NCBI RefSeq assembly: GCF_006345805.1
Contig: NC_043000.1
Coordinates: forward strand, 115,816,001-115,880,000
Reading direction: 5' to 3'
DNA length: 64,000 nucleotides
DNA from: Octopus sinensis
Taxonomy: Eukaryota
This document shows positions 8,797-57,993 of the stretch, one piece after another. The position numbers and the translations under genes were made by a program. A model generated the notes under the pieces. It searched no databases. It saw only the letters and a program-made list of their open reading frames with translations, and was not told where the DNA came from. Every line of letters begins with the position of its first letter. Positions within the stretch are counted from its first letter, which is position 1.

Positions 8797-8877
8797 TTTC
8801 GACATATGTTTCGAAGGCTGCATATTCCTAATTCCGAAGGAATATGGAGTACATTATGCAGATTTCTCATCAGGAAA
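8797..8877 (-). ncRNA. Type I hammerhead ribozyme, family A
   Basis: Reverse complement is tttc-CTGATGA-long stem II-GAAA-catatg-TC-gaaa. Confidence 0.8.
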
Positions 8878-8966
8878 GGCAAGGAACTTATGTCGACATC
8901 AAAATGCACAAAAACTTTTAGCTGAAAGTTTTTTGTGCATTTTGATGTCGACATAAGTTCCTTGCC

Positions 8967-9047
8967 TTTCCTGATGAGAAATCTGCATAATGTACTCCTT
9001 ATTCCTTCGGAATTAGGAATATGCAGCCTTCGAAACATATGTCGAAA
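8967..9047 (+). ncRNA. Type I hammerhead ribozyme, family A
   Basis: tttc CTGATGA g..ctgcata..tatgcag..c GAAA catatg TC gaaa. Confidence 0.8.
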
Positions 9048-9096
9048 ATAAAGGAAATTTGTTAACAAGTCGTTCAACTCCGTTCTTTCATATACT

Positions 9097-9127
<31 letters not shown>

Positions 9128-10077
9128 GATATGAACAGGAAGTTGCACTGTGTCACCAAAACGGAGAAATATAATTATCACTAAGAAACATCTACATAAA
9201 TGCCGATCGAGAATGCTTAATACTGACGTCAGATAAACCCGCTCGATCTCTGCTTTCTTAGACTTGCTTCTCTATAATTCTATATATATAATGCTGCAAA
9301 TGTGCAAGCTCTTAAAGCAGTTGCTATGCAACTTTCTTTGTGTACATCTCTTCATTTGACCATGGTATATCATTCACCTTAATCCTGATAAAAGGAGGAA
9401 AACGAACTTAAAATAGCCACGTAAAAATATCAGTGGATGACATGGATGACACTTGTACATGAAAAAAATGTCTGAAGCGAATACCGCCCACTGGTAAACT
9501 GTTTTATAATATAGAATGTTAATATACAGGAAAAATGCGTCGTCAGCATCGACCAAATGACATTTATGAGAAAAATTAAGGTGACGGTAACTTTGTCATC
9601 AAGGCAAAAATATTTATTGGTCAATAAGCAACATCTGACGATTGAAACATAATTCACAGAGCCGAGAGTATGTATAAATTTAAACGTCTACAAATTGGAG
9701 CGGTACATAATGTCAGCCATTAACGCATGCAGCATTTGATGGCATATGGCTTATAAAACGCGCTCTATCCATTATAACTATGTCTCGAAAATCACTCCAG
9801 GTCCTTTATGCGGGATATGCATTACATGAATTAAATACATCAATTCACTAAAATAATTCTTTTATATGCGCTGCTGAAATTTGGAATGATTCTAGTATAT
9901 TCTGCATCTTTTATGCCATTAAATACGGCAGTTAAATTGGTTTTTATTAACATGGAAGTGTTAGACAGGAATATAACATAATTAAGCGAAAGATAGACTA
10001 GTAATGACCAATAATGCTTTGACTTGCTTGGGGCCCCTCAATCCTTGAAGGAATCATAAGAGCACTGTTATGATATG

Positions 10078-10583
10078 CGGTACTTAATTTATCGACCCCG
10101 AAAGGATGAACGGCAAAGTCGACCTCGGCGAAATTTGAACTCAGAACGTAACGACAGACGAAATACCTATTTGTTTACTACCCACAAGGGGCTAAACACA
10201 GAGAGGATAAACAAGGACAGACAAACGGATTAAGTCGATTATATCGACCCCAGTGCGTAACCGGTACTTATTTCATCGACCTCAAAAGGATGAAAGGCAA
10301 AGTCGAATTCGGCAGAATTTGAACTCAGAATGTCACGGCAGACGAAATACCTATTTCTTTATTACCCACAAGGGGCTAAACATAGAGGGGACAAACAAGG
10401 ACAGACATAGGTATTAAGTCGATTACATCGACCCCAGTGCGTAACTGGTGCTTAATTTATCGACCCCAAAAGGATGAAAGGCGAAGTCGACCTCGGCGGA
10501 ATTTGAACTCAGAACGTAACGGCAGACGAAATACCGCTTAGCATTTCGCCCGGCGTGCTAACGTTTCAGCCAGCTCGCCGCCT
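10078..10583 (-). mobile_element. tRNA-derived SINE family 2, tandemly amplified (~184 bp period)
   Basis: Head ggcggcgagctgg..gttagc / gagttcaaattcc (A/B box) at the right end; body repeated about 2.7 times. Confidence 0.85.
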
Positions 10584-11229
10584 TACGATAACACCTGATT
10601 AAGAACTCAATAGATTTCAAAGCAACAAGGTATATAAGTAATTAGACGTGATGAACATTTAAAAATAGGAAAATAGATTTTTTACAAGTTGTGTCGCGGT
10701 TTACAATGAAAGAATAGTCGTAGTTTGCTTTTAGGTCGCAACAAGTTCTGTTGAGCAAATGGAAAGCTTTTTTTTACAAGAACTCGATGGAGTTTCAATT
10801 CTGGACTGAAGTAAATTAACTAAACTTACAATACAAATACTTCCTGGGAAAACAGAAAAGTCACAACAAGTTTAAAATAAAGAGCTTTCGTGTCTGAAAA
10901 AAAAATATATTAATATGTTTGTGAATTGGTATAGCGTATAGAATAGATTCCTGTAGAGTCTGCCTAGGACTTGCTTTAAATATTCAGGACTGTGAAAAAT
11001 GCAAACGAAGACACGACCGGATGTGATTTAATAACGTAGACAGAGACACCACGAACACATTCAACCGTCCGGTCCGGTGTCCTTTGCGTTTCTTCCACTT
11101 CACTGCATTCAAAACCCAGTTATTAATTAAAAAGATACTTTCTGGGAAAAGAAGAAAACAACCCGGTAATTATGTGGTTGCGTGCCTGAAATAATGGTTA
11201 CCATAGAATTTATAAATTGGAATGCTGAA

Positions 11230-11282
11230 TTCTATTATTATTATTGTTATTATTATTATTGTTGTTGTTATTATTATTATTA

Positions 11283-11328
<46 letters not shown>

Positions 11329-11351
11329 GTTAATATTGTTATTATTATTAA

Positions 11352-11387
<36 letters not shown>

Positions 11388-11484
11388 TATTATTATTATT
11401 ATTATTATTAATGTTGTTATTATTATTACTATTATGAAATATCACATATGGCTTGTGTGTATGCGTGTATGTGTGTGTATATAC

Positions 11485-11520
<36 letters not shown>

Positions 11521-11572
11521 ATACAAATGTATGCCTGTACAAAAGTATGCCTGTGTACAAATGTATGCATGA

Positions 11573-11654
<82 letters not shown>

Positions 11655-11692
11655 GTGTGTAAACGTGTGCCTGTGTACAAATGTATGCATGA

Positions 11693-11724
<32 letters not shown>

Positions 11725-11799
11725 ATGTATGTATGTATATATATATATATGTACGTACGTGTGTAAACGTGTGCCTGTGTACAAATGTATGCATGAGTG

Positions 11800-11838
<39 letters not shown>

Positions 11839-11873
11839 ATGTATGTATGTATGTATGTATGTATGTATGTATG

Positions 11874-11904
<31 letters not shown>

Positions 11905-11905
11905 A
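11230..11905. repeat. (ATT)n followed by duplicated (TG)/(TATG) cassettes
   Basis: Directly visible. Confidence 0.9.
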
Positions 11906-12232
11906 TTTTGATGTCTGAAATAATCATATTAAAACGAATTAAATTTAATAATGTATGACTAATCAGATTCTAGACACCAAATAATCAACAAACACGGAAA
12001 CAATTGCAATTCTGATATTTTATCGTTTACCTTGGACTTTCCCTGGAGAGTGCAGCAGAACTGCGGCAAGCTCCACTGAAGGTGCATCGGCAACTTTTTT
12101 TCTACCTGTGATTGTGGTTTCACTTCATTTATGTCGCTATAAATAAATATCTCTAGCATGGCACAAATACAAAATTATTTCTTCCCCAGAAGTTAACTAG
12201 TGTTTATTTTATTGGACCCAGACAAAATCATC

Positions 12233-12985
12233 AGGCACAGGAGTGGCTGTGTGGTAAGTAGCTTGCTTACCAACCACATGATTCCGGGTTCAGTCCCACT
12301 GCGTGGCACCTTGCGCAAGTGTCTTCCACTATAGCTTCGGGTCGACCAAAGCCTTGTGAGTGGATTTGGTAGACGGAAACTGAAAGAAGCACGTCGTATA
12401 TATGTATATGCATATATATATATATATTATATATATATATATATTAATATATATATATATTATATACCAATTAAGGACTGAACACGAAAGTGGACAGTCA
12501 ACATGCTAGATATAGACGTCAAATCGCCATTCTCCACAAAAGATTATGTTCTCAAATCAAACTGAGTTTGATTTGAGAACATAATCTTTTGTGGAGAATG
12601 GCGATTTGACGTCTATATCTAGCATGTTGACTGTACACTTTTCGTGTTCAGTCCTTAATTGGTATATATAAATATTTTAATCTCCGGATTCTTTTTTAAT
12701 ATGCTAGACCACTGGTTTTAATTGATAAATATCAATTTCTACCCTTAATTAATTTTATATATATAAACATGTGTATGTGTTTGTGTGTGTGTTTGACCCC
12801 CCCAACATCGCTTGACAACCGATGCTGGTGTGTTTACGTCCCCGTAACTTAGCGATTCGGCAAAAGAGACCGATATAATAAGTACTAGGCTTACAAAGAA
12901 TAAGACCTGAAGTCAATTTGCTCGACTAAAGGCAGTGCTCCAGCATGGCCACAGTCAAGTGACTGAAACAAGTAAAAGAGTAAAG
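12233..12985 (+). mobile_element. CORE-like SINE interrupted in its central (TA)n by a palindromic insertion
   Basis: 5' half at 12233-12400 and 3' half at 12775-12985. Confidence 0.85.
12467..12662. repeat. Near-perfect ~196 bp palindrome
   Basis: ccaattaaggactgaac...caaact|gagtttg...gttcagtccttaattgg. Confidence 0.9.
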
Positions 12986-13385
12986 AGGACTTGGTCGGAG
13001 TGACCGTTGTCAAGGGATGACATGTGACCTCGTTCTCCATTGAATCAGATGCTACGGCTTTCCATATAAATCGCTGCGTTATTTCTTGCAGAAGATTGGT
13101 CTGGAATCGAAACAACTGGAGAATGTCACCGAGAAGATAGGTATAGCAAATGAATCCAGATCAAAGTGGCTGTAGTTGATTGGAGACCATAGGCGGAAGC
13201 CTTCCGCAGCCAATTACTATTTCGGTCCTCGCAGCCTCATTAAGGCAAAGCGTACTGGCTAAGAAGCGAAGTGTTTGTGACTCTGGGAACCTGGTGTACT
13301 AATTTCAACTCCTGCGTCTATGACGCAAACCCAGGGAGCATTCGAGAATTAAATCTAGCATCACGGTTACAAGATTGTGGTTTCG

Positions 13386-13620
13386 GGCGGCGAGCTGGCA
13401 GAAACGTTAGCACGCCGGGCGAAATGCCTAGCCGTATTTCGTCTGCCGTTACGTTCTGAGTTCAAATTCCGCCGAGGTCGACTTTGCCTTTCATCCTCTC
13501 GGGGTCGATAGATTAAGTACCAGTTACGTTCTGGGGTCGTTATAATCGACTTAATCCGTTTGTCTGTCCTTGTTTGTTCTCTCTGTGTTTAGCCCCTTGT
13601 GGGTAGTAAAGAAATAGGTT
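13386..13620 (+). mobile_element. tRNA-derived SINE family 2, complete monomer
   Basis: A/B box head, gcctttcatcct..ggggtcgat body, gccccttgtgggtagtaaagaaat tail. Confidence 0.85.
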
Positions 13621-14032
13621 TCGATTTCCGGAACAGGCAAGGCATTGGGTTCTTGAGCAAGATACTTCATTTCACTCCAGTCCATTTTTTGTATTTTGAA
13701 TATATTTTAACTCTTTAACAAACATATGTCGATGGAGTGCCAAGTAGCCACGAACGAATTCCGCTGATAAACAAAAACGTAGCCCCTCAACAACTTCTGT
13801 TTCACAAGATACATAATAAAGGCACGCTTGGCTGTGTAGTAAGAAGCTTGCTTCCCAACTACATAGTTCCGGGTTCAGTCGCACTGCATGGCACCTTGGG
13901 CAAGTGTCTTCTACTATTGCCTCGGGCCGACTAAAGCCTTCTGAGTGGATTTTGTAGACGGAAACTGAAAGAAGCCCGTCGTGTGTATGTATATATATAT
14001 AAAGTGTAGGTGGCATACGAGTGGGTATATAT

Positions 14033-14359
14033 TTATAAAAAAGAAGTTTGAAAACGCCACTATGTAAGATAAATTTTAATTTTCTGAGAGATTTTACATG
14101 TTTCGGTTCTTGAAAAAACGAACCTTATCACTATTATAGCCAACGATTCTAGTTACCGCGCAAGATAGCCATTATGCTCCCCCCACCTCAAAACACCACC
14201 ACGTGGACTCTGTTGAGACTAGTAAGAAACAATTATGAACTTATTTATTACACTTAACTTTTAAAAATATTTATGAAAAGGCTCGTTTTTTGAAGAAGAA
14301 CCGAAGCATGTAAAATCTCTCAGAAAATTAAAATTTATCTTATAAAGTTTTCAAAACTT

Positions 14360-14365
<6 letters not shown>
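14033..14365. repeat. Inverted pair of degenerate hammerhead-like pLTR fragments
   Basis: 14033-14130 and 14270-14365 are reverse complements. ggttc..gaacc-GAAA-catg-TA-aaat with a decayed core. Confidence 0.55.
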
Positions 14366-14399
<34 letters not shown>

Positions 14400-14551
14400 G
14401 TAAATATAAGAGAGTTACCACTATGTGGTCGACTCTAGCACTAAAAATAGATCCGCTAGGTTTCAGCCACGAAGAATTGTTTCCGATGAAAGTTAGCACG
14501 ACTATTAGCGTAAACGAACAGGGCAAATAAAGAATAACAAAAGTGCAGATT

Positions 14552-14630
14552 AATTCAGGACAATTGTTTCGTTATTAATAAATTATGCAATTTTACTCAC
14601 ACAACATATCCGTATCTCCTCAGCTGAATT
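14552..14630 (-). ncRNA. Type I hammerhead ribozyme, array unit 1
   Basis: aattcag-CTGAGGA-gata..taac-GAAA-caattg-TC-ctgaatt, with a 7 bp stem I. Confidence 0.85.
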
Positions 14631-15044
14631 TGTCTAGAATACAATTTACTCAACCGCATGCCAGATTTTACCATAACAATAAACACACATGCGGTTCAGT
14701 CGATTGCATTCACCGTTATAATTCAAGTGCCCCCGCCAAAATCACGGAAACAGATACTACATCAAAAATTAAATGCAGCATAATTACAATCAACTAATAA
14801 GGGTGAGAAAAGTGGATACTAATTAATAGTACCATCTTTTAACACCAAGTGGCTTAGTGCATAAAAGACCAGGAATATAATAAATTTTATACGTAAATAT
14901 AAGAGAGTTACCACTATGTGGTCGACTCTAGCACTAAAAATAGATCCGCTAGGTTTCAGCCACGAAGAATTGTTTCCGATGAAAGTTAGCACGACTATTA
15001 GCGTAAACGAACAGGGCAAATAAAGAATAACAAAAGTGCAGATT

Positions 15045-15123
15045 AATTCAGGACAATTGTTTCGTTATTAATAAATTATGCAATTTTACTCACACAACAT
15101 ATCCGTATCTCCTCAGCTGAATT
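15045..15123 (-). ncRNA. Type I hammerhead ribozyme, array unit 2
   Basis: Same as unit 1. Confidence 0.85.
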
Positions 15124-15537
15124 TGTCTAGAATACAATTTACTCAACCGCATGCCAGATTTTACCATAACAATAAACACACATGCGGTTCAGTCGATTGC
15201 ATTCACCGTTATAATTCAAGTGCCCCCGCCAAAATCACGGAAACAGATACTACATCAAAAATTAAATGCAGCATAATTACAATCAACTAATAAGGGTGAG
15301 AAAAGTGGATACTAATTAATAGTACCATCTTTTAACACCAAGTGGCTTAGTGCATAAAAAACCAGGAATATAATAAATTTTATACGTAAATATAAGAGAG
15401 TTACCACTATGTGGTCGACTCTAGCACTAAAAATAGATCCGCTAGGTTTCAGCCACGAAGAATTGTTTCCGATGAAAGTTAGCACGACTATTAGCGTAAA
15501 CGAACAGGGCAAAGAAAGAATAACAAAAGTGCAGATT

Positions 15538-15616
15538 AATTCAGGACAATTGTTTCGATATTAATAAATTATGCAATTTTACTCACACAACATATCCGTA
15601 TCTCCTCAGCTGAATT
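15538..15616 (-). ncRNA. Type I hammerhead ribozyme, array unit 3
   Basis: Same as unit 1, with a perfect gata/tatc stem II base. Confidence 0.88.
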
Positions 15617-15795
15617 TGTCTAGAATACAATTTACTCAACCGCATGCCAAATTTTACCATAATGATAAACACACATGCGGTTCAGTCGATTGCATTCACC
15701 GTTATAATTCAAGTGCCCCCGCCAGAGCCCGCCAAAATTCACGGAAACAGATACTACATCAAAAATTAAATGCAGCATAATTACAATCAACTAGT

Positions 15796-15856
<61 letters not shown>

Positions 15857-17296: not shown

Positions 17297-17344
17297 GACT
17301 CCGATGAAGGGATATAATAAATATCCTGGAAACAGCTGTAAGAC
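17297..17344 (+). ncRNA. Hammerhead variant (CCGATGA core)
   Basis: gact-CCGATGA-a-ggata..tatcc-GAAA-cagctg-TA-agac. Confidence 0.65.
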
Positions 17345-17406
17345 CTTCTGTCTATAAATGCTCTAATATCTATACAGACTTGGTTTTTTTAATCTCATTA
17401 CGAAAA

Positions 17407-17479
<73 letters not shown>

Positions 17480-17540
17480 TTTTGCGTAATAAGATAAAAA
17501 ACAAAGGCTGTATAGATATTAGAGCATTTATATATAGAAG

Positions 17541-17592
17541 GTCTTACAGCTGTTTCTAGGATATTAATTAATAATATCCATTCATCGGAGAC
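17541..17592 (-). ncRNA. Hammerhead variant (CCGATGA core)
   Basis: Reverse complement is gtct-CCGATGA..GAAA-cagctg-TA-agac. Confidence 0.7.
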
Positions 17593-17703
17593 GGTGTGAG
17601 AGAAGTTAAGTCATAGTTAGTTTAGATGTGATACAAACAGAGAGTGAGGTGGAGGAAAGAAAATAGATGTAACTAACTATGACTTAATTTTTCCACTCAC
17701 ACC

Positions 17704-17755
17704 GTCTCCGATGAAGAGATATAATGAATAAATATCCCAGAAACAGCTGTAAGAC
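17704..17755 (+). ncRNA. Hammerhead variant (CCGATGA core)
   Basis: gtct-CCGATGA..GAAA-cagctg-TA-agac. Confidence 0.7.
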
Positions 17756-18950: not shown

Positions 18951-19731
18951 CTGGTGTGATAACCGACGCTAGTGTATTTACGTCGCTGTAACCTAGCACT
19001 TCGGCAAAAGGAGACCGATAGAATAAGTACTGGGCTTACAAAGAATAAGTCCTGGTGTTGATTTGCTCGACTAAAGGCGGTGCTACATCATGGCCACAGT
19101 CAAATGACTGAAACAAGTAAAAGAATAAAAGAATGTATATATATAAATATAAATATGTATATATATACATATATATATGTACACACACACACACACTGAC
19201 ACACACATATATATATATGTATGTACATTCGCACACACACATAGATGCAAATATATTATGCATTCATAGATGTACACAGCTATGGTTACATATATTTTTA
19301 CAGGATTTTGCCATAGATATTTACTCTCCAAGTCTCTGCAACACATATTGCAAGTCTAATGAGGGCCATCCGTCTGGGATTAATTTCACTAATTACTTCT
19401 ATTTAGCTTCACACATTAACGAGGTGTGAGCTAAGATACGTCTCGTTGTTTTCAACATCATATGGATGCAGAGAAGTGGAACTAAATTCCAACGCCTTAG
19501 CACGATAATTATAGCCCTTCATAGCCACCGTACATCACTACCATCGCCTGTGTCGTTAAACTTATATTTCACTCCCAGATTGAGTTTTATATCTGTGAGC
19601 TTAATGACGCGTGTTTATTTGTCATAAAGTATAAGCTAATGAGAACACCTTGTCGTTTCTCCATGTGCTTAAAATAGCAGCTAAACTACTGCTTGAGTGG
19701 CTAACGATAAACGATCAGCCACTTACTCCTA

Positions 19732-20045
19732 GGCGGCGAGCTGGCAGAATCGTTAGCACGCCGGGCGAAATGCGTAGCCGTATTTCGTCTGTCATTACGT
19801 TCTGAGTTCAAATTCCGCCGAGGTCGACTTTGCCTTTCATCCTTTCGGGGTCGATTAAATAAGTACCAGTTACGCACTGGGGTAGATATAATCGACTTAA
19901 TCCGTTTGTCTGTCCTTGTTTGTCCTCTCTGTGTTTAGCTCCTTGTGGGTAGTAAAGAAATAGGTATTTCATCTATTGCTACGTTCTGTGTTCAAATTCC
20001 GCCGAGGTCGACTTTGGCTTTCATCCTTTCGGGGTCGATTAAATA
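19732..20045 (+). mobile_element. SINE family 2, monomer plus partial repeat
   Basis: Homology to 13386-13620. Confidence 0.85.
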
Positions 20046-20079
20046 AATCCAGAATTGCTGTATTTTCTGTCGGTGGTCG

Positions 20080-20832: not shown

Positions 20833-20999
20833 GAGTAGTGAATGATTATCTTATTGATAATTCGGTTAACGATACCAAGGGGTAGCATTCCCCGTCAGAA
20901 AAACACGGTTGAAGCTACATGCCTAGGGCAGAAATCACGTAAGTACATTTTAGATAAATACATACCTATATAAATCAATAAGTTAAAACTCAGCCTATG

Positions 21000-22938
21000 G
21001 TCTAGCTCCACTCAAGTCGTAGAGTGCTTTTCTTCTATTACTAATAAGGACAGCACAAACTTCATTCAATTCCATATATCTAGTTTCTACCCTTCGATAA
21101 ACCCTAGTGCACTCAATAAGGCCCTATGGCACGCACATAATAAGGCAGGCCTCTCAAGGGAGGAAATTCATGTAATTTTAGCGGCTAGAAAATCCTTCAT
21201 AAAGTTCGATGATAAGTTATGGGTCCGCAGGGAAACCTCCAACGCGTTCGGTGTACTAATGGGAAGTACAGATAGCGCCCAGATACCCGATTTGGTCGGA
21301 ATCTATATTCTCTATGAATTGGCCGACTAATTCCCGGACATCTGCGGCGGTCTGTATCGAGACGATTGTCTACTTTACCTACAGAATGCTCCGAACAATA
21401 TGATACAGAAGACTAAAAACAGATTAGCTAGATTTTTTAGCAGAATGGGCTTGAGCATAGTTTTCGACGACGAATTAACTAAAGCCAACTTCTTAGATGT
21501 TACCCTAAATCTGCAGAATAATTCTTACTTCCCTTATCATAAGCCTTCTACTAATCTTAAATATATCAGCATTTTCAGTAACCATGCCAAAACTATCACC
21601 GATAATTTAGTTAAAAATATATCATTAAGACTATCAAATTTATCTGCTAATGTCGACATCTTTAACCAAAAAGCGGAATTTTATAACGCCGCCTTGTCAA
21701 AAGCCGGTTATAGAGATAAAGTATCATATATCGACCCGGCCCATTCTAAACCGATATATGCTTCTCAGGATAAGAAAGCTAATAACAATAGAAATAATGT
21801 AATAATGATTTCAGCTCTAACAACGTCGACACCACTACAACTAAACAAAATATTTACGGACCAAGGGAGGCAATCGGAAACAACAAAAATTCTCCAACAC
21901 AGAAATACTCCCTTTAATGTAAATGTTAACACTCTGAACTATTTTAAGTCCAAAAAAAACTATATCTGGTTTGTCATTCCTTTCGGGAAACAAATCAGGT
22001 CTAACCTCCCTTTACAGTTCCGTGAAGCCATAGCTAGAAACTTTCTCAGGAATTCTAGGTATTACTCTACTATCAATTCGCATAAGGTAAGGATTGCATT
22101 CTCCAACACTAGTAATCTATCGCAGATCATTGCCTCCCATAATAACAAGCTGCTAAATAAGGACTCATCACCCGGGAGTAGCGACACTGCCCTTACCAAT
22201 TCCAACCAAACATACAATAATAATAATAATAGAAATAGTATTGATAATAGCAACATTCATAACAGCGTTGGCATTAACAATAGTAATATTAATAATAATA
22301 TTAGTCGGATTATTAACAGTGGTAGTGTTAGTGGTAATAACGACAGCATTCCCAATAACAGTGGTAGTATTGATGATAACAACCCCAGCATTCCTATAGT
22401 CAGGGAAATTACCGACGATAGTACAATTAATAGTAATGATAATAATATAAATAGTATTGTGGTTAATGCTAGCAATAATATTAACACCAATCATAACAAT
22501 AAAAACTCCGTCTTAGTCTCGGAGGTAAACCCTAACAGATTAAAGTTCTTATCCAGCAATTCCAAAATTAGAAATTCCATTTACCAGTGCAAAATTTCTT
22601 CTGGTACCGATGTCTTCTTCTACATTGGGGCAACTACTTCTAAATTAGCACACAGGATCTCCAACCATTATTCAACTTTCCGAGATAAGAGAAAACAACA
22701 CAGCACAGGACTAAGTAAAATAATTTGGCGTCTTAAGGACAGCAATACAACTTTCAAGCTGGAATGGTCCATATTGTCTGTATCCTTTCCGTTTGATAAG
22801 GGCAGAAAATTTTGTGGCGTCTGTAATTCCGAACTTTTCCATATTTTGTTCGCCAAAGTCCCTTTAATAAATACAATGGTCGAGAAATCCTATAGATGCA
22901 TGCACTGGCAAAAACACACCTTTCACTCATATGAATAA
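21000..22938 (+). pseudogene. Penelope RT + GIY-YIG endonuclease ORF (in-frame TAA at 21328; open 21331-22938)
   Basis: YRDD, NFLDVTLNL..Y.PYHKP, SIYQCKI..YIGAT..RISNH, CGVC..E and RCMH motifs. Confidence 0.88.
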
Positions 22939-23487: not shown

Positions 23488-23570
23488 TTTTCCTGATGAG
23501 AAAGCGGCATAATGCACCCCTTATTCCTTCGAAATTAGCAATATGCAGCCTTCGAAACATATGTCGAAAA
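23488..23570 (+). ncRNA. Type I hammerhead ribozyme, family A, in the PLE pLTR
   Basis: ttttc-CTGATGA..GAAA-catatg-TC-gaaaa. Confidence 0.8.
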
Positions 23571-23627: not shown

Positions 23628-24797
23628 AGGCCATCCGGATTCCCGTTTGCGCCGTGAACAAGAATTAATCTTCTCTCTTCGCTCTTATACGCCATTTGGT
23701 CTCAACTCTCCCCCCTCCTCATCTAACCCCCCTCTCCCCCCTCCTCACCTATCCTTCCCCCCGACCCCTACTTCTTCAGTCCTTCATCCTTTCACCCCTA
23801 CTCCCCTTCCCTTCTTCCCGCTTTCTCCCTCCCTCCTTCCCTCTTCACCTTCCCTCTGCTCCCTCACTCCCCTTCTCTATCCCCCTCCCCTCTTTCCTCC
23901 TTCCTCCCCCCTCCTCATCCCCTTCCTTGTACCCCACCTCTCCCCTTCCCCCCTCTCCTTCCCCTCCCCTTCTCCCCCTCTCTCCTCACTACACCACACG
24001 ACTTTACACATCACATCATATATGATGTGCCATACTAATACAACACCAACTAATACATACTAATACGTACTAATACATACTAAACATACTAATACTACAC
24101 CAACCCTATACATACACACGTCCAGACCCCTCATACGCACTTACACTCTCTCATAACAACACACACACTTATACATACTAATACGTACTAATACATATAA
24201 TACATACTAATACATACACCAACCCCATACATACGCTGTCCAGACCTATCCTACGCACAATACTCTCTCATACACACACCACACTTACATACTAATACTA
24301 CTAATACATACTAATACATAATAATACATACCCAACCCTACATACGCCTGTCCAGACCTATCCTACGCACTAATACTCTCTCATCACACACAACACCACA
24401 CACACACACACACCCTTATACATACTAATACATACTAATACATACACCACCCCTATACATACACACGTCCAGACCCCTCCTACGCACTAATAGGTGGTCA
24501 TTCAACTCTATTATCAACCCTATTATCTCCCCTTATTTCGCTCTCGCGTCTCATGTTTGATCTTTGACTTCGGCTGAAATCAGATCGCCAGTTGATTCGT
24601 TAGCTACTGCACGCATTTTTTTTCTCTCCTTCTTTCTGTGTTTTTTTTCTCTCTGTGTATCTTTCTGTTGAAGAGCGTAGGCTCGAAACGTTAAAGACTT
24701 GTTTTATTTATATTTCCTGAGCGCCATACTAATACAATGTTGTTTGTTTTTTCCACCTGCCTTCGTCTTTTGTCTATTTTCATAAAGCTTCCCGTTA
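23628..24797 (+). mobile_element. 3' end of a second PLE (Neptune/Poseidon-like EN tail, pyrimidine tract, minisatellite, pLTR)
   Basis: RLRREQELIFSLRSYTPFGLN matches the GIY-YIG C-terminal RE..I..L....P.GLN motif. ~115 bp repeats at 24050-24490 and an HHR-like motif at 24660. Confidence 0.7.
24660..24697 (+). ncRNA. Minimal hammerhead variant (CTGTTGA core)
   Basis: tcttt-CTGTTGA-a-gagc-gtag-gctc-GAAA-cg-TT-aaaga. Confidence 0.6.
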
Positions 24798-28559: not shown

Positions 28560-29180
28560 AGGCGGCGAGCTGGCAGAAGCGTTAGCACGCCGGGTGAAAT
28601 GCTTAGCGGTGTTTCGTCTGCCGCTACGTTCTGAGTTCAAATTCCGCCAAAGTCGACTTTACTTTTCATCATTTCGGGGTCAATAAATTAAGTACCAGTT
28701 ACGCACTGGGGTCGATATAATTGACTTAATCCGTTTGTCTGTCCTTGTTTGGCCCCTCTATGTTTAGCCCCTTGTGGGCAGTAAAGAAATAGTATTCCGT
28801 CTGCCACTATGTTCTGAGTTCAAATTCTGCCGGGGTCGAGTAAATAAGTACCAGTTACGCATTGGGGTCGATATAATCAACTTAATCCATTTGTCTCTCC
28901 TTGTTTGCCCCTTCTGTGTTTAGCCCCTTGCGGGTAGTAAAGAAATAGGTATTTCGTCCGTCGTTACGTTCTGAGTTCAAATTCCGCCGACGTCGACTTT
29001 GCCTTTCATCCTTTCCGGGTCGATTAAATAAGTACCAGTTACGCACTGGGGTCGATGTAATCGACTTAATCCGTTTGACTGTCCTTGTTTGTCCCTTCTG
29101 AGTTTAGCCCCTTGTGGGTAGTAAAGAAATAGGCATTTCGTCTGCCGTTCCGTTCTGAGTTCAAATTCCGCCGAGATCGA
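28560..29180 (+). mobile_element. SINE family 2 tandem array
   Basis: One head and about 3 body repeats. Confidence 0.85.
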
Positions 29181-36602: not shown

Positions 36603-36805
36603 ATAGGTTGAAAATTTGCAAAAGCAACAAAAGACGAACACGGGTGTGTAAACAACAAACAGATGAATTAGTTTAACACTCGGGAAGTGAGAAAGTCTCT
36701 TATGTTTCGAGCCTACGCACTTCGATAGAAAGGAACACAGAAATAAAAAACAGGGAGAGAAAATAAAAAAAAGGCTTGGTGGCATTGATCTATCATGGCG
36801 AATGA
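36603..36805 (-). mobile_element. Solo pLTR fragment of the 24570-24797 family (another at 58060-58250, +)
   Basis: Shared gcgtaggctc-gaaac hairpin and flanks. Confidence 0.65.
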
Positions 36806-37782: not shown

Positions 37783-38041
37783 GGGCATATGGCGTAGTGG
37801 TTAAGAGCGCGGGCTACTAACCCCAAGATTTCGAGTTCGATTCTAGGCATTGACCTAAATAATAATACTAAAAATAATAACAACAACAATAACATCGAAA
37901 AATACCTTAGGAATGAGAACCTAGGTTCGAAATTTCCCCAAGACACCTGATGAAGGCTGGAGGGTATATCAGCCGAAATGTTGTGTTAACAACAAACAAG
38001 ATGAGGACAAATATCCGTCAAATGTAAATAATGTAAATAAT
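37783..38041 (+). mobile_element. tRNA-headed SINE with (AAT)n linker and hammerhead-containing tail
   Basis: A box tggcgtagtgg, B box gagttcgattc, HHR at 37942-37987, tail (aatgtaaat)n. Confidence 0.8.
37942..37987 (+). ncRNA. Minimal hammerhead ribozyme in SINE tail
   Basis: gacac-CTGATGA-a-ggctg..cagcc-GAAA-tg-TT-gtgtt. Confidence 0.7.
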
Positions 38042-38999: not shown

Positions 39000-39570
39000 G
39001 TTTACTAAGCCCCTCACTAACGCAACGCCTCCTGCTAATTTAGGTACGGACCTGAATAATAATTGCTCCCCACAATACAACATGGACATACATACACCTA
39101 ATTATTTATGCGGCTGTAGGGATAGAATAAAGTGTCATTTCTCAAATAGATGTAAGACAAATAGCGTAGTTTGCCAATGTGACGTCCACACAAACAACCA
39201 GACGAAATCATACATAGGTGCAACAAAGAACCAAATGATTCTCAGATATAATACGCGTGTATCCAGCTTCAGAAATAGGAATAAGGCTAACTCAAGAGGG
39301 TTAAGTGTATATATTTGGGAACTTAAGGATAAAAAATAGATTTTAGCTTAAACTGGCGTATACTCACAAAAACAACCTCCTACAACACCGCCTCCTAACC
39401 TATGCATCTATCTATATTCGCATTCTGAAGAGATTTACTTAAACCAGTAAATCGAAACGATCGTAAATGCTACCCTCATCTCTGCTTCTTCCTTCTTTGT
39501 TATCTATTTAATTAAAGACATGTCAGCGTAAACCACGAGTTTCCCTTGTTATTATATCCATTTTCTTCTC

Positions 39571-39663
<93 letters not shown>

Positions 39664-39950
39664 GGGTATGAGTATGAGTAAGTATCCATGGGTATGAGTA
39701 AGTATCTCATTTATTTCTTTTGCGACATGTATCACTGACGAAGAGAGGGCTCTTAGTAGCTAACTCTGAAATCGGTCCGATATAGTAATAATGGAATTTT
39801 TTAGAAATTTCTGTCGACCTTTTTTCGAGTAGCGTGCGTATTATGAAAAAATTATATGGTTAATGGACAATATGTCCAATTTTTCGGCATATATGGCATT
39901 AGAAATTTTTTCCTTTGCCCTCATTTATGAATTGTTTATAAATTTAACCG
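39000..39950 (+). mobile_element. Degraded Naiad-type PLE 3' end (GIY-YIG EN + pLTR)
   Basis: CGCRDRIKCHFSNRC..VVCQCDV..SYIGAT..RY..SSF..GLSVYIWELKDK, followed by an HHR at 39730. Confidence 0.8.
39730..39782 (+). ncRNA. Hammerhead ribozyme (CTGACGA core)
   Basis: tatca-CTGACGA-agag..ctct-GAAA-tcgg-TC-cgata. Confidence 0.7.
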
Positions 39951-47139: not shown

Positions 47140-47185
47140 AACACAACGTTTCGGCTGATATACCCTCCAGCCTTCTTCAGGTGTC
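47140..47185 (-). ncRNA. Minimal hammerhead ribozyme
   Basis: Reverse complement is gacac-CTGAAGA-a-ggctg..cagcc-GAAA-cg-TT-gtgtt. Confidence 0.75.
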
Positions 47186-47353: not shown

Positions 47354-47399
47354 GACACCTGAAGAAGGCTGGAGGGTATATCAACCGAAACGTTGTGTT
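47354..47399 (+). ncRNA. Minimal hammerhead ribozyme
   Basis: gacac-CTGAAGA-a-ggctg..caacc-GAAA-cg-TT-gtgtt. Confidence 0.72.
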
Positions 47400-50459: not shown

Positions 50460-50594
50460 TTATAAAATAAGAGCAAGAAAATTTCATCAAAAAAATCATC
50501 ACAGAAGATATACGTCCCAAATAATATTGTATTAACAGATAGAAGCATAAATATATAAATTATGATTATTTAAAAGGTTTAAAAGTTTAAAATA

Positions 50595-50683
50595 TCTTAC
50601 GATCGTTTCGTGAATATATTACCTTTCGAAATGGAATCTAAAATTGATAATCATTATTAGGTAATGCATCCACTCGTCCGAGA
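50595..50683 (-). ncRNA. Hammerhead variant (CGGACGA core) in a pLTR-like fragment (~50460-50850)
   Basis: Reverse complement is tct-CGGACGA-gtg..attacct..aggtaat..cac-GAAA-cgatcg-TA-aga. Confidence 0.62.
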
Positions 50684-50849
50684 GAAAGAAGGTGAATTTC
50701 TGTGTAGTCAATCGAATGCTATTTAAAAATATATGAAAAAGATGTTGTTTAAAGATGTTGCTTAAAAGGTTAGTGACGTAGATATGTGTTGGTACAATTT
50801 TGTGCTAGAAATTTTAAAGAAATAATTCTCATTGAATATATTTGATTAA

Positions 50850-50894
<45 letters not shown>

Positions 50895-51026
50895 TATAAG
50901 AGGAATCGCCACCAAGGTGAGTTCCTAATATGCTTGAAGAAGACGCCAAATACTCTTCGTGGTAAGGCGATTTGGCGTCTTCTTCTAGCATATTAGGAAC
51001 CCACATTGGTGGCTATTCCTCTTATA
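50895..51026. repeat. Imperfect ~130 bp palindrome related to 12467-12662
   Basis: Shared ggcgatttgRcgtct..tctagcat motif. Confidence 0.8.
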
Positions 51027-51062
51027 TATATATGTATGTGTGTGTGTGTTTTATGTATCTAT

Positions 51063-51475
51063 TTATTTTTTTCACTTGTTTCAGTCATTTGACTGTGGCC
51101 ATGCTTGAGCACCGCCTTTAGTCGAGCAAATCGACCCCAGGACTTATTCTTTGTAAGCCTAGTACTTACTCTATCGGTCTCCTTTGCCGAACCGCTAAGT
51201 TACGGGGGCGTAAACACACCAGCATCGGTTGTCAAGCGATGTTGGGGGAACAAACACAGACACAGAAACCTATACACACACATACATATATATACATATA
51301 CATATATACGACGGGATTCTTTTCAGTTTCCCTCTACCAAATCCACTCACAAGGCTTTGGTCGGCCCGAGACTATAGTAGAAAACACTTGCCCAAGGTGC
51401 CACGCAGTGGGACTGAACCCGGAACCATGTGGCTGGTAAGCAAGCTACTTAACACTCAGTCACTCATACGCCTAC
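51063..51475 (-). mobile_element. CORE-like SINE
   Basis: Homology to 47640-48036. Confidence 0.88.
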
Positions 51476-52104
51476 AATATATATATATTTATATATATAT
51501 GCCTACCTGTATCTGAATGAATGTTTATATATGTACGAGTATGTGTGTGTTTGTACACACACACACACTCACGATAGCGTCTAAGCTTGTGAATATGTGT
51601 ATATGTGTGTTAGTGCATGTTTGTGCTTGTGTGTGTGTAAACACAATTCACGTCTATTAGAATTATATTCTTAAAAACATGACCCGGAACCTAATTGCCT
51701 CTGAAACGTATAACAGCGTATATCGCCCCGTTTTCAGATTTTCGCTTTTATGATTTATGATGACACAGCTGCTTCGAGATTATTGTCCAAGTATTTCGAT
51801 TAGCGAAACCTTTTTTATAAGCTTCAAGCTGTGAATGAAATATTTTTCGATTTAAGTTTTCATTAATTCCGCAAAAGCTATAAACGAAAATATCTGAGGA
51901 AATATAATCATGCGCCATTATAATATACACGTATGGGTGTGGGTAGGTAGGGTGGTAAGGGCAATATGTGTATGCATGTATGTATGATTCATATATGAAT
52001 GTCTGTGTGTATATGATATATGTATGAATGTGTATATGTATGCATGTAGGCAGTGGGGGATGTACACATGCCTGAATGTACGTTTAAGTTATTGTGTTTG
52101 TGTA

Positions 52105-52152
<48 letters not shown>

Positions 52153-52165
52153 CACACACACACGC

Positions 52166-52200
<35 letters not shown>

Positions 52201-52202
<2 letters not shown>

Positions 52203-53627
52203 GATAAATATCAAAGTGAGTTATATACAGTAGCGGTAACACATCGTGATGTATTTTTGCCATTTCAATATGGCTAACCCCTAAGGGTGGATGCTACTGT
52301 AGTTTTTAGCCCCAGGAGGACACACTCCTCCAGCTGGCCATAGACACACTATCTGTGTCCTGTCAGTATTTGCAAAGGGAAGTCATCCTTCCCGTCTTCA
52401 ACTTATGATACACACGGACTCGAGTTTCGAGGTATTGACCTCTCGTCATCGTGTGACAATCATAGTTGTCGCCGAGAATTAGATTTCCTTCACAAATACT
52501 TATACTTTTTCCAGCGCCCACTGTCGCTGATATTGAAAAAGTGAAATCAAACAATGATAAATATCAAAGTGAGTTATATACAGTAGCGGTAACACATCGT
52601 GATGTATTTTTGCCATTTCAATATGGCTAACCCCTAAGGGTGGATGCTACTGTAGTTTTTAGCCCCAGGAGGACACACTCCTCCAGCTGGCCATAGACAC
52701 ACTATCTGTGTCCTGTCAGTATTTGCAAAGGGAAGTCATCCTTCCCGTCTTCAACTTATGATACACACGGACTCGAGTTTCGAGCTATGGACCTCTCGTC
52801 ATCGTGTGACAATCATAGTTGTCGCCGAGAATTAGATTTCCTTCACAAATACTTATACTTTTTCCAGCGCCCACTGTCGCTGATATTGAAAAAGTGAAAT
52901 CAAACAATGATAAATATCAAAGTGAGTTATATACAGTAGCGGTAACACATCGTGATGTATTTTTGCCATTTCAATATGGCTAACCCCTAAGGGTGGATGC
53001 TACTGTAGTTTTTAGCCCCATGAGGACACACTCCTCCAGCTGGCCATAACACACTATCTGTGTCCTGTCAGTATTGCAAAGGGAAGTCATCCTCCCGTCT
53101 TCAACTTATGATACACAGGACTCGAGTTTCGAGCTATTGACCTCTCGTCATCGTGTGACAATCATAGTTGTCGCCGAGAATTAGATTTCTTCACAAATAC
53201 TTATACTTTTTCCAGCGCCCACTGTCTGATATTGAAAAATTGAAATCACAATGATAAATATCAAGTGTTTATATACAGTGCGGTACACACCGCTACTGGT
53301 AACTCACTTTGATATTTATCATGTTTGATTTCACTTTTTCATATCAGCGACAGTGGGCGCTGGAAAAAGTATAAGTATTGTGAAGGAAATCTAATTCTCG
53401 GCGACATCTATGATTGTCACACGATGACGAGAGGTCAATACCTCGAAACTCGAGTCCATGTGTATCATAAGTTGAAGACGGGAAGGATGACTTCCCTTTG
53501 CAAATACTGACAGGACACAGATAGTGTGTCTATGGCCAGCTGGAGGAGTGTGTCCTCCTGGGGCTAAAAACTACAGTAGCATCCACCCTTAGGGGTTAGC
53601 CATATTGAAATGGCAAAAATACATCAC
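52201..53627. mobile_element. 353 bp tandem array (3 units + partial) followed by one inverted unit; retrozyme-like
   Basis: Unit starts at 52201, 52554, 52907 and ~53251; inversion near 53290; one HHR motif per unit. Confidence 0.88.
52411..52455 (-). ncRNA. Hammerhead variant (ATGACGA core); further copies at 52764-52808(-), 53114-53157(-) and 53418-53462(+)
   Basis: cacacg-ATGACGA-gagg-tcaata-cctc-GAAA-ctcgag-TC-cgtgtg. Confidence 0.78.
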
Positions 53628-53768
53628 TATATATATATATATATATATTATATATACATACATATATCACAGTATCAAAATATCGACCAGACAATCAGAT
53701 GCTGTTATACACCTCTGGTCACAATGCGTTTCCATTTTCGTCTTGATTAGGCAAAAATGTGTGTGTAT

Positions 53769-53802
<34 letters not shown>

Positions 53803-56124
53803 CATATATACACACACACACATACATGAATGTGTACACAAATTTACGTATGAATCTGTATATTTATGTATGTGTTTATAAGTGTATGTATGCTTGCATG
53901 TACATATGTTCTTGATGTATATGTGAAAATTCTCGCCTATAGACACAGAACTGATTTCTATCTGAGAAACAAGATTCTTTCATTAGAATTCAGATGTCAG
54001 TTAGATAATGTATGTATATATTCGTGATTGTATTTTTCGAATATTTAACCGATTTTGTAGGAAACGGCTCCTAGCTGAAAACAAGGCTCTCTTAAATACC
54101 CCAAGCAAGATGACACATTTGATAAATAACAGAACCAAAGTACTCTGTCAAATTCTTCCATCATCCAAAATGTCATACATTAGATAAAAAAAAATAATAC
54201 AAAATAACCCTCAAAATCTCTATATTGCAACCACCGCCTTGTCTTTAGATTAAACTACTTACCAAATACTTTAACTGAAAACATTTACAAAGAGAATGAT
54301 GGCGACTGCTGAATATTTTATGAATCATGTTTATAAAATATTTATCCTAATGCATCTCATCTCAATCATAAGATAGAAACTCCAGGAAATAATCTGCATG
54401 CAGAACTTTAGTCTCTCTCTTCTCTCTCAATTGCTGAAGTATTAACGACCAATAAAAGTTAAAGAGAAAAATTTCTATGAATTTCTTCTAAACTGTTACG
54501 CTTCGTAAAAATATTTGATTTAGTGTCATTTATTTGTCTTGGGTTATGCCATGCTCATGATTTCAAATAAGAATGAAATGGTGATATACATGCCTACTTG
54601 TGATTAAAACATTGTAAAGAATAGAAAAATTTGAATATTTAAATTCTGTGCATTTTCTTCGTTGTTCTCCGATTGCAAACTGTAAAACCTAACTCAGCTA
54701 TGATTAATCTAGAATAATCAGGATTAATCTTACAATAACGACCTCAGGTCACACCATAGGTTTAGGTATCCCAACCGTCTTCAAAATGTTTAATCATGGT
54801 TGATCATTCAACATTTGCCACCTAGATCCGAAATATAACTTATAAGTTGTGTATGTAGTAGGATAGGAACACACTTGTCTCTCGTTTGCTAATTTCTCAT
54901 CTGTGCTCGCAGGTCCGATAGACGATTCCAGTGCTTGTCAAACTGACGGGTTTCCCAGACCAGGTTTCATTAAAGTGTAATTTATTCTGCGAAATGGAAA
55001 GAAATTCAATGATAAAGTATTTCCCGTAGTTTGCGTTTCATTCCCTACAACCATTCTGCTTTCCAGGGATAGTGACATTTCCGCTTTTTTCAGGGCTTCA
55101 GGATTTCGCCTTAACTCTGGCAGGGTGGCTAACGGGTACTATGCGTACCAAAGAGCAACTTGTGATTTTGTCCAGGACTGCTTATTGAGTCTCCGCAGTT
55201 AACCCATGTATCTACAAGTCGTACCCCTATCCACAAACCGAGGACCCGTTGATGAGAGTTTTGATACCACACTAAAAGAACAAATTTCTCATATTTCTTT
55301 AAGTATTCCAGAGATACATCGAAACCCTAATATTCAGAAATAGAATAGTGTTGATTTCGGATACTTTAATAACAATATATAATATCGTGTATAATTCTTT
55401 CTACTACAGACACGGGGCCTGAAATTTTGGGAGAGTGGATGCTAGTCGATTATATTGAATCCTGTACACAGCTGGTACTTATTTCATCGACCCCGGAAGA
55501 ATGAATAGCAAATTGAACCTTAGCGGAATTTGAACTCAGAACTTAGAACCGGAAGAAATACTGCTACACATTTTCTCCGGCAAGGTTACGATCCTGCCAG
55601 TGCATTGGCCTCATGTTGTATATAATTAAAAAAAAAGGGTCTTGGATTATGAGTTGAAATCCAGTGTCTTTTTGTGTGCATGTGTGTGTTTAGTAGAGAG
55701 GCTTTTGTTAGGATGGTTCTTACAATAAGCTGGCATTTTTGCCAAGCAACAATTTGATTCTTATTCATTTCATGCTAAGAATTATAGAGTATCAGCTATC
55801 TGAATAACCCCTGTGGCCTGAAAACGGACCATCGGAAACTTTACCACTTCCGAAATCTAATATCTCGACACGCCATTTGAAAATGTATCATTGATATGGA
55901 TTATCTTCAACTGTGATAGCCTCGATGAATTATTTGCAACTGTATCACTCTATAATATCATTTTAAACTGTATATCTCCAAATGTTACAGCGATTGGACA
56001 ATGACAAGACCATCCACTTCAGAGATATCCAAAATGGGTCGTGTTGTATCCCGTAAATATGTAATGCCACACGGAAAGACATGGTAATCATTATTCATTT
56101 TAATATTTTTTTAATCCCTCTAAG

Positions 56125-56760
56125 ATGGCAGAACCGATAGCACGCCGGGCAAAATGCTTAGCGGTATTTCGTCTGCCGTTACGTTCTGAGTTTAAATTCC
56201 GCCGAGGACGACTTTGCCTTTCATCCTTTCGGGGTCGATAAATTAGATACCAGTTACGCACTGGTGTCGATGTAATCGACTTAATACCTATGTCTGACCT
56301 TGTTTGTCCCCTCTATGTTTAGCCCCTTGTGGGTAATAAAGAAATAGGTATTTTGTCGGTTGAAGGCGGCGAGCTGGCAGAAACGTTAGCACGCCGGGCG
56401 AAATGCTTAGCGATATTTCCTCTGCCGTTACGTTGTGAGTTCAAATTTCGCCGAGGTCGATTTTGCCTTTCATCCTTTCGGGGTCGGTTAAATAACTACC
56501 AGTTACGCACTGCAGTCGATATAATCGACTTAATCAGTTTGTATGTCCTTGTTTGTCCTCTCTGTGTTTAGCTCCTTGTGGGTAGTAAAGAAATAGGTAT
56601 TTCGTCTGTCTTTACGTTCTGAGTTCAAATTCTGCCGAGGTTGACTTTGCTTTTCATCCTTTCGGGGTCGATAAATTAAGTACCTGTAGCGTGCTGGGGT
56701 CGATCTAATCGACTGGCCCCCTCCTCCAAAATTTCCGTCCTCGTGCCTAGAGTAGAAAAG
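56125..56760 (+). mobile_element. SINE family 2 tandem cluster
   Basis: Two heads and three bodies. Confidence 0.85.
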
Positions 56761-56784
56761 AATCGTTAACACATCGAGTAAGCG

Positions 56785-57065
56785 GTCTTTAGGTTCGAGG
56801 TGGTCATTAAGCTCTGCTGTAATTTTGGGAGCTATACTTTTTTTATTCGTTCTCACAACTCCCGTAAGAGTCCGACCGTCCCTATCTGAAAGTTTTGGTT
56901 TTCTTGCGGAGTTTTGCTTCGATGAGGAGGTTTTTCCCCTGTTTCTCAAAGGCTGTCATTACTTTCGAGACAGTACTTCTTGATACACCAAACATTTCAG
57001 CTGTTTTTTGTTACGCTAGCGCACGCCATACGAGCACCAAAAATTTGATCTCTTTGCTCAACATC
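56785..57065 (-). pseudogene. Tc1 transposase N-terminal fragment
   Basis: QRDQIFGARMACASVTK..FGVSRSTVSKV..GKTSSSKQNSARKPKLSDRD.RTL..V..NKK..APKITAELN. Confidence 0.8.
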
Positions 57066-57390
57066 TCCTTGATTGTGTTGAGAACGATTACAAAGCTTTT
57101 GAAAAGTTTGTGTAGGCCTCTGAGTAGGTATCACCAAGCTCTTGGCAAAATTTGATGCAGATTCTCTGCTCAACTGTATCATGGTCAGTGTGACGACCAC
57201 ACGCTACACACGTTCCTTCCAAGAATTTCTGTAAACAGCGGAAGTGAGCTAGAACGTTAAAACTTAATGCGCATGCACAGCACAGTTCAAGGTCAATCTG
57301 TGCATAGCGACTGCACTTTGCATGCTTTAGCTTCGTTGCTATGGCAACAGTCAGTATACTTACTGATCAAACCACGTATACATACATATG

Positions 57391-57431
<41 letters not shown>

Positions 57432-57442
57432 CTAAGCAATAT

Positions 57443-57993
57443 AGTGGATAAAACAGTGTATTTGGCTTTAGAATAACCCTCTTTAGCCCTTAATTATATG
57501 ATGTATATTGCAACCGTAACGGTTTTTTTAAATATACTGCCCACGCTTCCTGATGAATTCCTTTGCTGTAGAGTAAGGGACTTCATCCTATATTGCTTAG
57601 TAGTAAACTCGATGCTTGCTACAGGAGGACTGGTAACCATTACAATTTGTAGCGGCGAAAGGTCTGGACGTTGTTTTCTGAGGCTGACCAAAGAATTTTT
57701 ATTTTAGATATAAGTGATGTACTCAAGTGTAGTTATGTTTTTAGCTTGTGCTTTTCCATGATCATACGTGAGTATTTTATTTATATCCCATCGAAAGTTC
57801 TACTGAAGAAGGAATATATCTTTTTTTATAAGATTAAGTCCGAAATTGATTCAATATAGAGATAACGAAATTTAAATTTTCTAAAGGTTAGTTGCCCGTT
57901 TTCAGTTTCAATTTTCCTGTAACAAGCGGATTATAAGTGGATAAAACAGTGTATTTGGCTTTAGAATAACCCTCTTTAGCCCTTAATTATATG

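Follow-up and report, generated by a model that had tools for sequence, protein, structure and literature searches.

A 64-kb stretch of the Octopus sinensis genome (contig NC_043000.1, positions 115,816,001 to 115,880,000; hereafter the window) contains 27 hammerhead-like motifs that belong to 13 repeat families. These numbers come from core and stem scans and a hand-built catalogue, because automatic scanners overlooked motifs with a bulged stem II. An earlier note on this DNA had counted about 20 hammerheads in about nine families and had proposed that helix III carries a family-specific palindrome, an address that restricts dimeric cleavage to partners of the same family. The hammerheads are there, in greater number than was claimed, but the address code as proposed is not supported: families share palindromes and relatives switch between them. 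We hold a different reading with considerable confidence. The type I hammerheads of these 13 families are likely the 3' ends of Penelope-like elements and their derivatives; helix III is likely self-complementary so that a double hammerhead can form; and the palindrome is likely inherited and drifting rather than a selected address.

The features of the window are as follows, with the strand in brackets and the helix III sequence given for the hammerheads.

7705..7764 (+): hammerhead, C3U core, decayed helix III CCAAGG (CCTAGG in the relative L061)
8801..8873 (-): hammerhead, intact core, CATATG; inverted arm of an insertion at 8.6-9.1 kb
8971..9043 (+): hammerhead, intact core, CATATG; the family search gave 1571 candidates, 40 of them scored
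14095..14131 (-): hammerhead remnant, CATG; family core U3-A8
14270..14312 (+): decayed inverted partner of the 14.1-kb motif; GAAG, CATG
14395..15793 (-): tandem array, 493 bp x 2.8, with three same-strand intact hammerheads, CAATTG
14559-14623, 15052-15116, 15545-15609 (-): the CAATTG hammerheads within the 493-bp array
17301..17340 (+): hammerhead, U4C core, CAGCTG
17545..17588 (-): hammerhead, U4C core, CAGCTG, inverted partner
17708..17751 (+): hammerhead, U4C core, CAGCTG
20962..22938 (+): Hydra-like Penelope frame, 5'-truncated, assigned by sequence motifs
23493..23565 (+): hammerhead, intact core, CATATG; 555 nucleotides (nt) 3' of the Penelope frame
24665..24692 (+): minimal hammerhead, CG, core CUGUUGA
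36701..36729 (-): decayed copy of the 24.7-kb family
37947..37982 (+): minimal hammerhead, intact core, TG; family of the 47.1- and 47.4-kb motifs
39142..39330 (+): remnant of an endonuclease, from a related Penelope element, just 5' of the 39.4-kb hammerhead
39425..39465 (+): hammerhead, intact core, CGATCG; absent from the earlier note
39735..39782 (+): hammerhead, intact core, 9-nt TCGG-T-CCGA
47145..47180 (-): minimal hammerhead, intact core, CG
47359..47394 (+): minimal hammerhead, intact core, CG
50598..50680 (-): hammerhead, U4G core, CGATCG
52200..53290 (-): tandem array, 353 bp x 3.1, with three C3A hammerheads, CTCGAG
52417-52449, 52770-52802, 53119-53151 (-): the CTCGAG hammerheads within the 353-bp array
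53424..53456 (+): inverted fourth copy, C3A, CTCGAG
57803..57856 (+): hammerhead, intact core, 9-nt TTGA-T-TCAA; two further copies in L004
58125..58154 (+): decayed copy of the 24.7-kb family
62018..62052 (+): hammerhead, intact core, 8-nt TGCATGCA, old family; beyond the range of the earlier note

These motifs are real features of the window. A palindrome-free scan of 1.064 Mb (the window plus 100 spread 10-kb stretches) found 35 matches, as against three in reversed sequence; such reversed-sequence controls rule out chance matches as the explanation. The type I core (CUGANGA, GAAA and UH, with stems I-III in type I order) is intact in 13 of the 27 motifs. The other 14 have changed cores, and all are altered copies of families: C3A throughout the four motifs at 52-53 kb, U4C throughout the three at 17 kb, U4G at 50.6 kb, C3U at 7.7 kb, A6U at 24.7 kb, and decayed cores at 14.1, 14.3, 36.7 and 58.1 kb. 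Rfam recognized only the hammerhead copies at 14.6-15.6 kb among the 150 matches listed; there Hammerhead_1 (RF00163) exceeds its gathering score at 15539-15615 (35.9 versus 34 bits) and falls narrowly under it at 14553 and 15046 (33.1 bits).

Most of the palindromes read in the earlier note are borne out: CATATG in its three motifs (8801-8873, 8971-9043 and 23493-23565), CATG at 14.1 kb, CAATTG three times (14559-15609), CAGCTG three times (17301-17751), CG at 24.7, 47.1 and 47.4 kb and thus common to 24.7 and 47, TG at 37.9 kb, CGATCG at 50.6 kb, CTCGAG four times (52417-53456) and TTGATTCAA at 57.8 kb. Motifs at 7.7, 14.3, 36.7, 39.4, 58.1 and 62.0 kb are additional to these. The reading of 39.7 kb as (T/C)CGG was wrong. 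All 15 family copies have GAAA TCGGTCCGA TA, with stem I on TGGTA, so that helix III is the odd 9-nt palindrome TCGG-T-CCGA, like that at 57.8 kb; our own first parse as TCGG was abandoned in favor of this form.

At 52-53 kb, where the window copies have C3A, nine of nine other fetched copies of the family have C, as does nearly all of the public contig depth (52449 T>G). This insertion was probably made from one defective template copied several times, and its copies would remain cleavable in trans by intact members of the family. In the 24.7-kb family, core position 6 is U in 12 of 12 fetched copies and A is kept in a sister family. The 24.7-kb family is common (nine BLAST matches in the 1-Mb sample, some of them to the sister family), and it was amplified either with an unusual core or without cleavage. 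The 17-kb CAGCTG sub-family (17301-17751; L087) has the U4C core in four of six fetched copies. At 50.6 kb the U4G change is in the window copy; relatives have CUGACGA, and one of them has CGATTG. Copies of the 14.1-kb family carry a U3-A8 covariant core, which is known from PMC4209133 and PMC3088659.

Is the window a special cluster? It represents 64 kb of a 2.72-Gb genome, has 34.6% GC and is rich in microsatellites. Its seven strict matches, in four insertions, compare with 22 in a spread sample of 1 Mb, a roughly five-fold higher density. We rejected the idea of a special cluster, since the whole genome is hammerhead-rich. Two strict patterns with a free 4-base loop gave 20,321 and 39,448 matches genome-wide versus 1,767 and 1,380 in the reversed control, 59,769 versus 3,147 in all. 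When 100 listed matches of the first pattern were inspected by eye, 71 had perfect palindromes, 15 were G-U paired and 14 were neither, with the caveat that tandem copies among them are not independent. Patterns with a fixed palindrome gave 427 versus 5 for CATATG, 1,250 versus 0 for CTCGAG and 2,317 versus 2 for CAGCTG. The pattern for the 4-nt class (7,581 versus 3,220) is too noisy for counting. A young CGTACG family (L132-L139, L149-L150), with tandems of about 558 bp and inverted arms, is frequent at the start of contig C1 and is a good candidate for an active retrozyme.

What kind of element carries these motifs? Upstream of the 23.5-kb CATATG hammerhead lies a frame of 535 amino acids (21331-22938) that extends 5' past one in-frame stop into motifs resembling reverse transcriptase (RT), from 20962 on. 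It has YRDD, an Asn-rich linker plus, at the C terminus, a GIY-YIG-like domain with CxxC-E and N-CxH; the endonuclease residues C95, C98, E101, N114, C123 and H125 are invariant in eight of eight aligned sequences. Its N-terminal RWK and DKT motifs have been lost through truncation. The CxCX5C linker of the Hydra clade is absent from the window frame and present in its relative L115. Judged by these motifs, the frame appears to be a Penelope RT/GIY-YIG element that is Hydra-like only. The region at 22180-22530, between RT and endonuclease, is an Asn-rich low-complexity linker in place of the cysteine motif; the relative P0004 has an Asn-rich insert yet retains the cysteines.

A second trace of such an element, the endonuclease remnant at 39142..39330, comes from a related Penelope element (36.5% over 63 amino acids, E 6.5e-8). 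At L289 a GIY-YIG frame whose linker is CX4CxxC, of the Neptune/Nematis type, precedes the CATG-family hammerhead, which lies 641 nt 3' of it. An RT/GIY-YIG-type frame thus lies 5' of the hammerhead, on the same strand, in three of the 13 families (CATATG, CATG via L289, and 39.4 kb via its remnant), where the linking of endonucleases to downstream hammerheads overlooked motifs with a long stem II. The remaining ten families are assigned to Penelope by anatomy alone: tandem arrays, inverted arms and (TA)n runs. A (TA)n-type run is found 3' of 19 of 21 motifs, an uncontrolled count in a microsatellite-rich genome. The partial tandems, inverted 5'-truncated arms and (TA)n targets of endonuclease-containing (EN+) Penelope elements are all present, as is the trait of non-LTR retrozymes (LTR, long terminal repeat), a tandem of units that each contain a single hammerhead (493 bp x 2.8; 353 bp x 3.1). 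Public contigs of the 52-kb family show head-to-tail joints, which also arise from tandem DNA. Published Penelope insertion structures, and the view of retrozymes as Penelope derivatives, fit the anatomy of the window. The window hammerheads likely form the 3' termini of Penelope-like retrotransposons and of their short non-autonomous derivatives. The earlier note's assignment to the Penelope/retrozyme type is supported, and a short palindromic helix III recurs across independent groups of families.

That recurrence was measured in 210 loci not selected by palindrome. They contained 101 distinct 6-nt matches, of which the 68 with stem I were kept and 33 dropped; families were grouped by BLAST into clans. 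A self-complementary helix III predominates in 33 of 37 families and in 23 of 25 clans, whereas column shuffling gives means of 7.8 families and 4.9 clans (maxima 16 and 12), and the self-complementary clans cover 10 different palindromes. The palindromic helix III described in the earlier note is thus maintained over independent clans. In the public contigs of the 52-kb family, the sole listed change inside the palindrome (52420 T>C) is wobble-compatible. To judge from these sequences, self-complementarity fits selection for dimer pairing, as has already been argued in PMC4209133, PMC6765202 and PMC3088659 (Fig. S8). Other forms of helix III occur at further loci of the genome. Hydra-type elements at L032, L049, L053 and L115 have an odd 7-nt CTC-N-GAG with A, A, G and T, respectively, in the middle, and those at L053 and L115 sit 3' of an endonuclease frame; L041, L196 and L017 have a longer helix III (CGGTGCATCG, CGGTATACCG, CTAATTTAG) for which monomer folding is also possible.

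If palindromes were addresses, co-resident families should avoid using the same one. In the commonest class helix III begins with C and ends with G; the search pattern imposed this, and most free-scan matches have it too. The form C-NNNN-G leaves 16 self-complementary hexamers, of which 29 families used 11. Family pairs with a common palindrome number 47 versus 25 under a uniform draw (P=0.002; least possible 13), and clan pairs 17 versus 12 (P=0.09; least possible 4). CATATG is the top palindrome in four clans, CAATTG in four and CGATCG in three. Sharing is above and not below a uniform draw, and avoidance between families was therefore rejected. The claim that palindromes are largely family-specific fails within the window itself: CGATCG occurs at both 39.4 and 50.6 kb, and apart from it the longest exact match between these motifs is 14 nt.

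Nor is the palindrome fixed within a family. One family of 2,595 copies, whose stem II and beginning of stem I do not vary, has CGATTG in 67, CAATTG in 29 and another sequence in 4 of 100 listed copies inspected by eye; the mismatched CAATCG occurs in none of these. L143 and L154 are identical at 192 of 213 columns, and two of their 21 differences turn CCGCGG into CTGCAG. The window's own clan includes CATATG, CATGTG and CACGTG states. Such G-U states pair with both neighboring palindromes. Palindromes do vary within families, as would not be expected of an address, but the variation is constrained, since it preserves self-pairing.

Which arm, then, would keep families apart? Predicted pairing points to stem I. 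Among 32 hand-picked representatives, stem I is predicted to block 36 of 39 pairs with the same palindrome, and of all 496 pairs, 3 have the palindrome as their sole predicted barrier. For 28 clans there are 378 between-clan pairs, of which stem I would block 371 and helix III alone four; the remaining three are compatible in both arms, versus 0.7 expected. Within clans, 19 of 40 pairs are predicted to be open, 10 to be blocked by stem I only, five by helix III only and six by both. In the window, even pairs with a common palindrome are costly (12.8 kcal/mol for 39.4 x 50.6 and 8.3 for 24.7 x 47.1). For all 22 window pairs tried, the prediction favors homodimers over heterodimers by 8-30 kcal/mol. 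The proposed insulation between families survives to this extent; in most pairs the predicted barrier is stem I. Stem I is exchanged in the predicted dimer too, so recognition would use both arms, and because any self-complementary sequence would serve, lineages would drift.

We picture the following mechanism. Two copies of one element would form a double hammerhead in which both helix III and stem I form between the copies and the core of each cuts the other. The usual partner would be the next repeat within one tandem or read-through transcript, or else a second RNA that the element's own protein holds in place. Palindromes would change by transitions through G-U intermediates (CGATCG-CGATTG-CAATTG; CACGTG-CATGTG-CATATG), with CpG decay helping. 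Family separation would be a by-product of divergence in either arm, mostly stem I, and most genomic copies would be dead insertion ends. Unconstrained co-folding of the 39.4-, 15.6- and 52.4-kb motifs gave a complete double hammerhead in which the copies exchange both arms; it did not do so for 47.1, 57.8 or the re-parsed 39.7. The co-fold minimum has an intermolecular helix III in 8 of 14 motifs.

A number of observations weigh against this reading. The other six of those 14 motifs, including all three tested 2-nt CG/TG motifs, formed no intermolecular helix III in co-folding. In vitro, retrozymes of coral and mussel cleave themselves as monomers (PMC7229834), and the 6-nt class may accordingly do without a dimer. 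The anole hammerhead depends on a protein, and insertion in vitro can proceed without this hammerhead (PMC11167929); of nine Xenopus dimers, eight did not cleave. CpG decay on both strands swaps palindromes without selection and can explain both CGATCG/CAATTG and CCGCGG/CTGCAG. As for the samples, most listed matches come from the start of contig C1, clans were defined by BLAST so that part of the sharing may be old kinship, and some loci in the sets of 32 representatives and 28 clans had been fetched by fixed palindromes. Only three of the 13 families have a Penelope frame tied to them, and Pfam and PDB searches gave no match to the window frame or its relatives. Among the public datasets with motif-bearing contigs, none is on record as RNA.

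How do other explanations fare? The address code holds that palindromes were selected to differ, preventing co-resident families from dimerizing and cutting one another. The uniformity of many young families is in keeping with it (CTCGAG in 13 of 13 fetched copies), as are the predicted cost of mismatched palindromes, about 10 kcal/mol on average, and the five within-clan pairs in which helix III is the sole predicted barrier, for example L143/L154 and L149/L309. We nevertheless consider it very improbable: the 210 loci hold at least 37 families for 16 hexamers, palindromes are shared more than by a uniform draw, one family amplified two palindrome states, and stem I already separates nearly all clan pairs, with more pairs open in both arms than expected. 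It is also unlikely, if slightly less so, that the 6- to 9-nt class mainly cleaves as monomers, using 2 to 4 bp and a loop whose self-complementarity would be a relic or would stem from CpG decay and hairpin bias, with dimer specificity irrelevant. Monomeric retrozymes do cleave during transcription, at about 0.8/min in coral and 0.1/min in mussel (PMC7229834), the 9-nt palindromes permit a 4-bp hairpin (57.8 kb), and the middle base of CTC-N-GAG is free. Yet in 23 of 25 clans, with 10 palindromes among them, complementarity extends to loop positions that a monomer cannot pair; several palindromes (CAGCTG, CCTAGG, CGTACG) are unlinked by CpG decay; CAATCG is missing from the 100 listed copies of the 2,595-copy family; and the 2-nt class has no monomer helix III at all.

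A third explanation is possible and is compatible with the dimer reading: the element's protein may set family fidelity by binding its own RNA and assisting the ribozyme, the arms needing only self-compatibility. The hammerhead of the anole Poseidon element cleaves only with its protein, which is predicted to dimerize, and cleavage is unnecessary for insertion of this element in vitro (PMC11167929); the 52-53-kb element was inserted carrying C3A in all four copies, whereas the family has C. This role has been shown for a single Poseidon element. More speculatively, and we think it improbable, the lock formed by stem I and helix III may act in trans in the cell. Active families would then cut RNAs of dead copies (such as the C3A copies at 52-53 kb) and any host RNA that bears a family end. 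A palindrome switch by way of a G-U state, which is compatible with parent and daughter alike, would be the first step in a new sub-family's escape from the parent ribozyme, a kind of ribozyme 'speciation' among retroelements, with the 2,595-copy CGATTG/CAATTG family and L143/L154 as candidates.

These results add a very hammerhead-rich animal genome, with tens of thousands of intact-core matches and at least 37 families in 210 loci. The natural compensatory series appear to support dimer cleavage and provide ready-made test pairs, and the idea that helix III alone determines the choice of partner is corrected. Should two-arm trans cleavage take place inside cells, retroelements living in one genome could cut or rescue each other as well as transcripts of the host; this would bear on the role of Penelope hammerheads.

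The window holds other repeats as well. A common repeat of 184-249 bp, probably of an octopus short interspersed element (SINE) type, occurs in tandem and in both orientations at 10078-10535, 19731-20055, 28833-29174 and 56126-56714. Fragments at 3-976 resemble the RT end of a long interspersed element (LINE). At 62787-62951 lies a long imperfect inverted repeat, like a miniature inverted-repeat transposable element (MITE), which appeared as a spurious microRNA-family match in the Rfam search.

A search of titles and abstract openings found nothing on octopus hammerheads or a palindrome address code, and the supplementary alignments of PMC4209133 may show sharing. One of the closest known systems is the minimal, short-helix-III hammerhead of metazoan Penelope pseudo-LTRs (pLTRs) described in the main text of that paper. 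Like the window motifs, these have a type I fold in which 15.2-16.2 and loop 3 are palindromic, numerous consensus families within a genome with compensatory changes, the U3-A8 variant, inverted pairs 100-700 bp apart and mostly single truncated copies. Unlike them, the octopus genome is dominated by 6-nt palindromes with a long stem II (inserts of 47-77 nt), and the 6-nt class alone has about 56,600 matches above control, versus 2,000-9,000 per genome there; the axolotl genome has 126,247 hammerheads (PMC7229834). Palindrome sharing, the G-U path and the stem I analysis go beyond the main text of PMC4209133.

The window arrays differ from the animal non-LTR retrozymes described in PMC7229834 in having about three units and, at 52-53 kb, an inverted arm. 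The 493-bp unit is over the 150-450 bp range given there and inside the 51-972 bp of bioRxiv 10.64898/2026.07.22.740005. The window element resembles the Hydra clade of C-terminal EN+ Penelope elements, as described in PMC8557442, in its order of RT and then C-terminal GIY-YIG, in the CxxC and CxH around a conserved E and N, in its 3'-end hammerhead and in its (TA)n neighborhood; it differs in its Asn-rich linker without CxCX5C. Finally, the double hammerheads of newt satellite 2 and avocado sunblotch viroid (ASBVd) and the repeats of Aedes, Schistosoma, Nematostella and Xenopus treated in PMC3088659 likewise have differing self-complementary helices III, which were read as permitting dimers. 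That comparison is between species, whereas ours is between many families of one genome.

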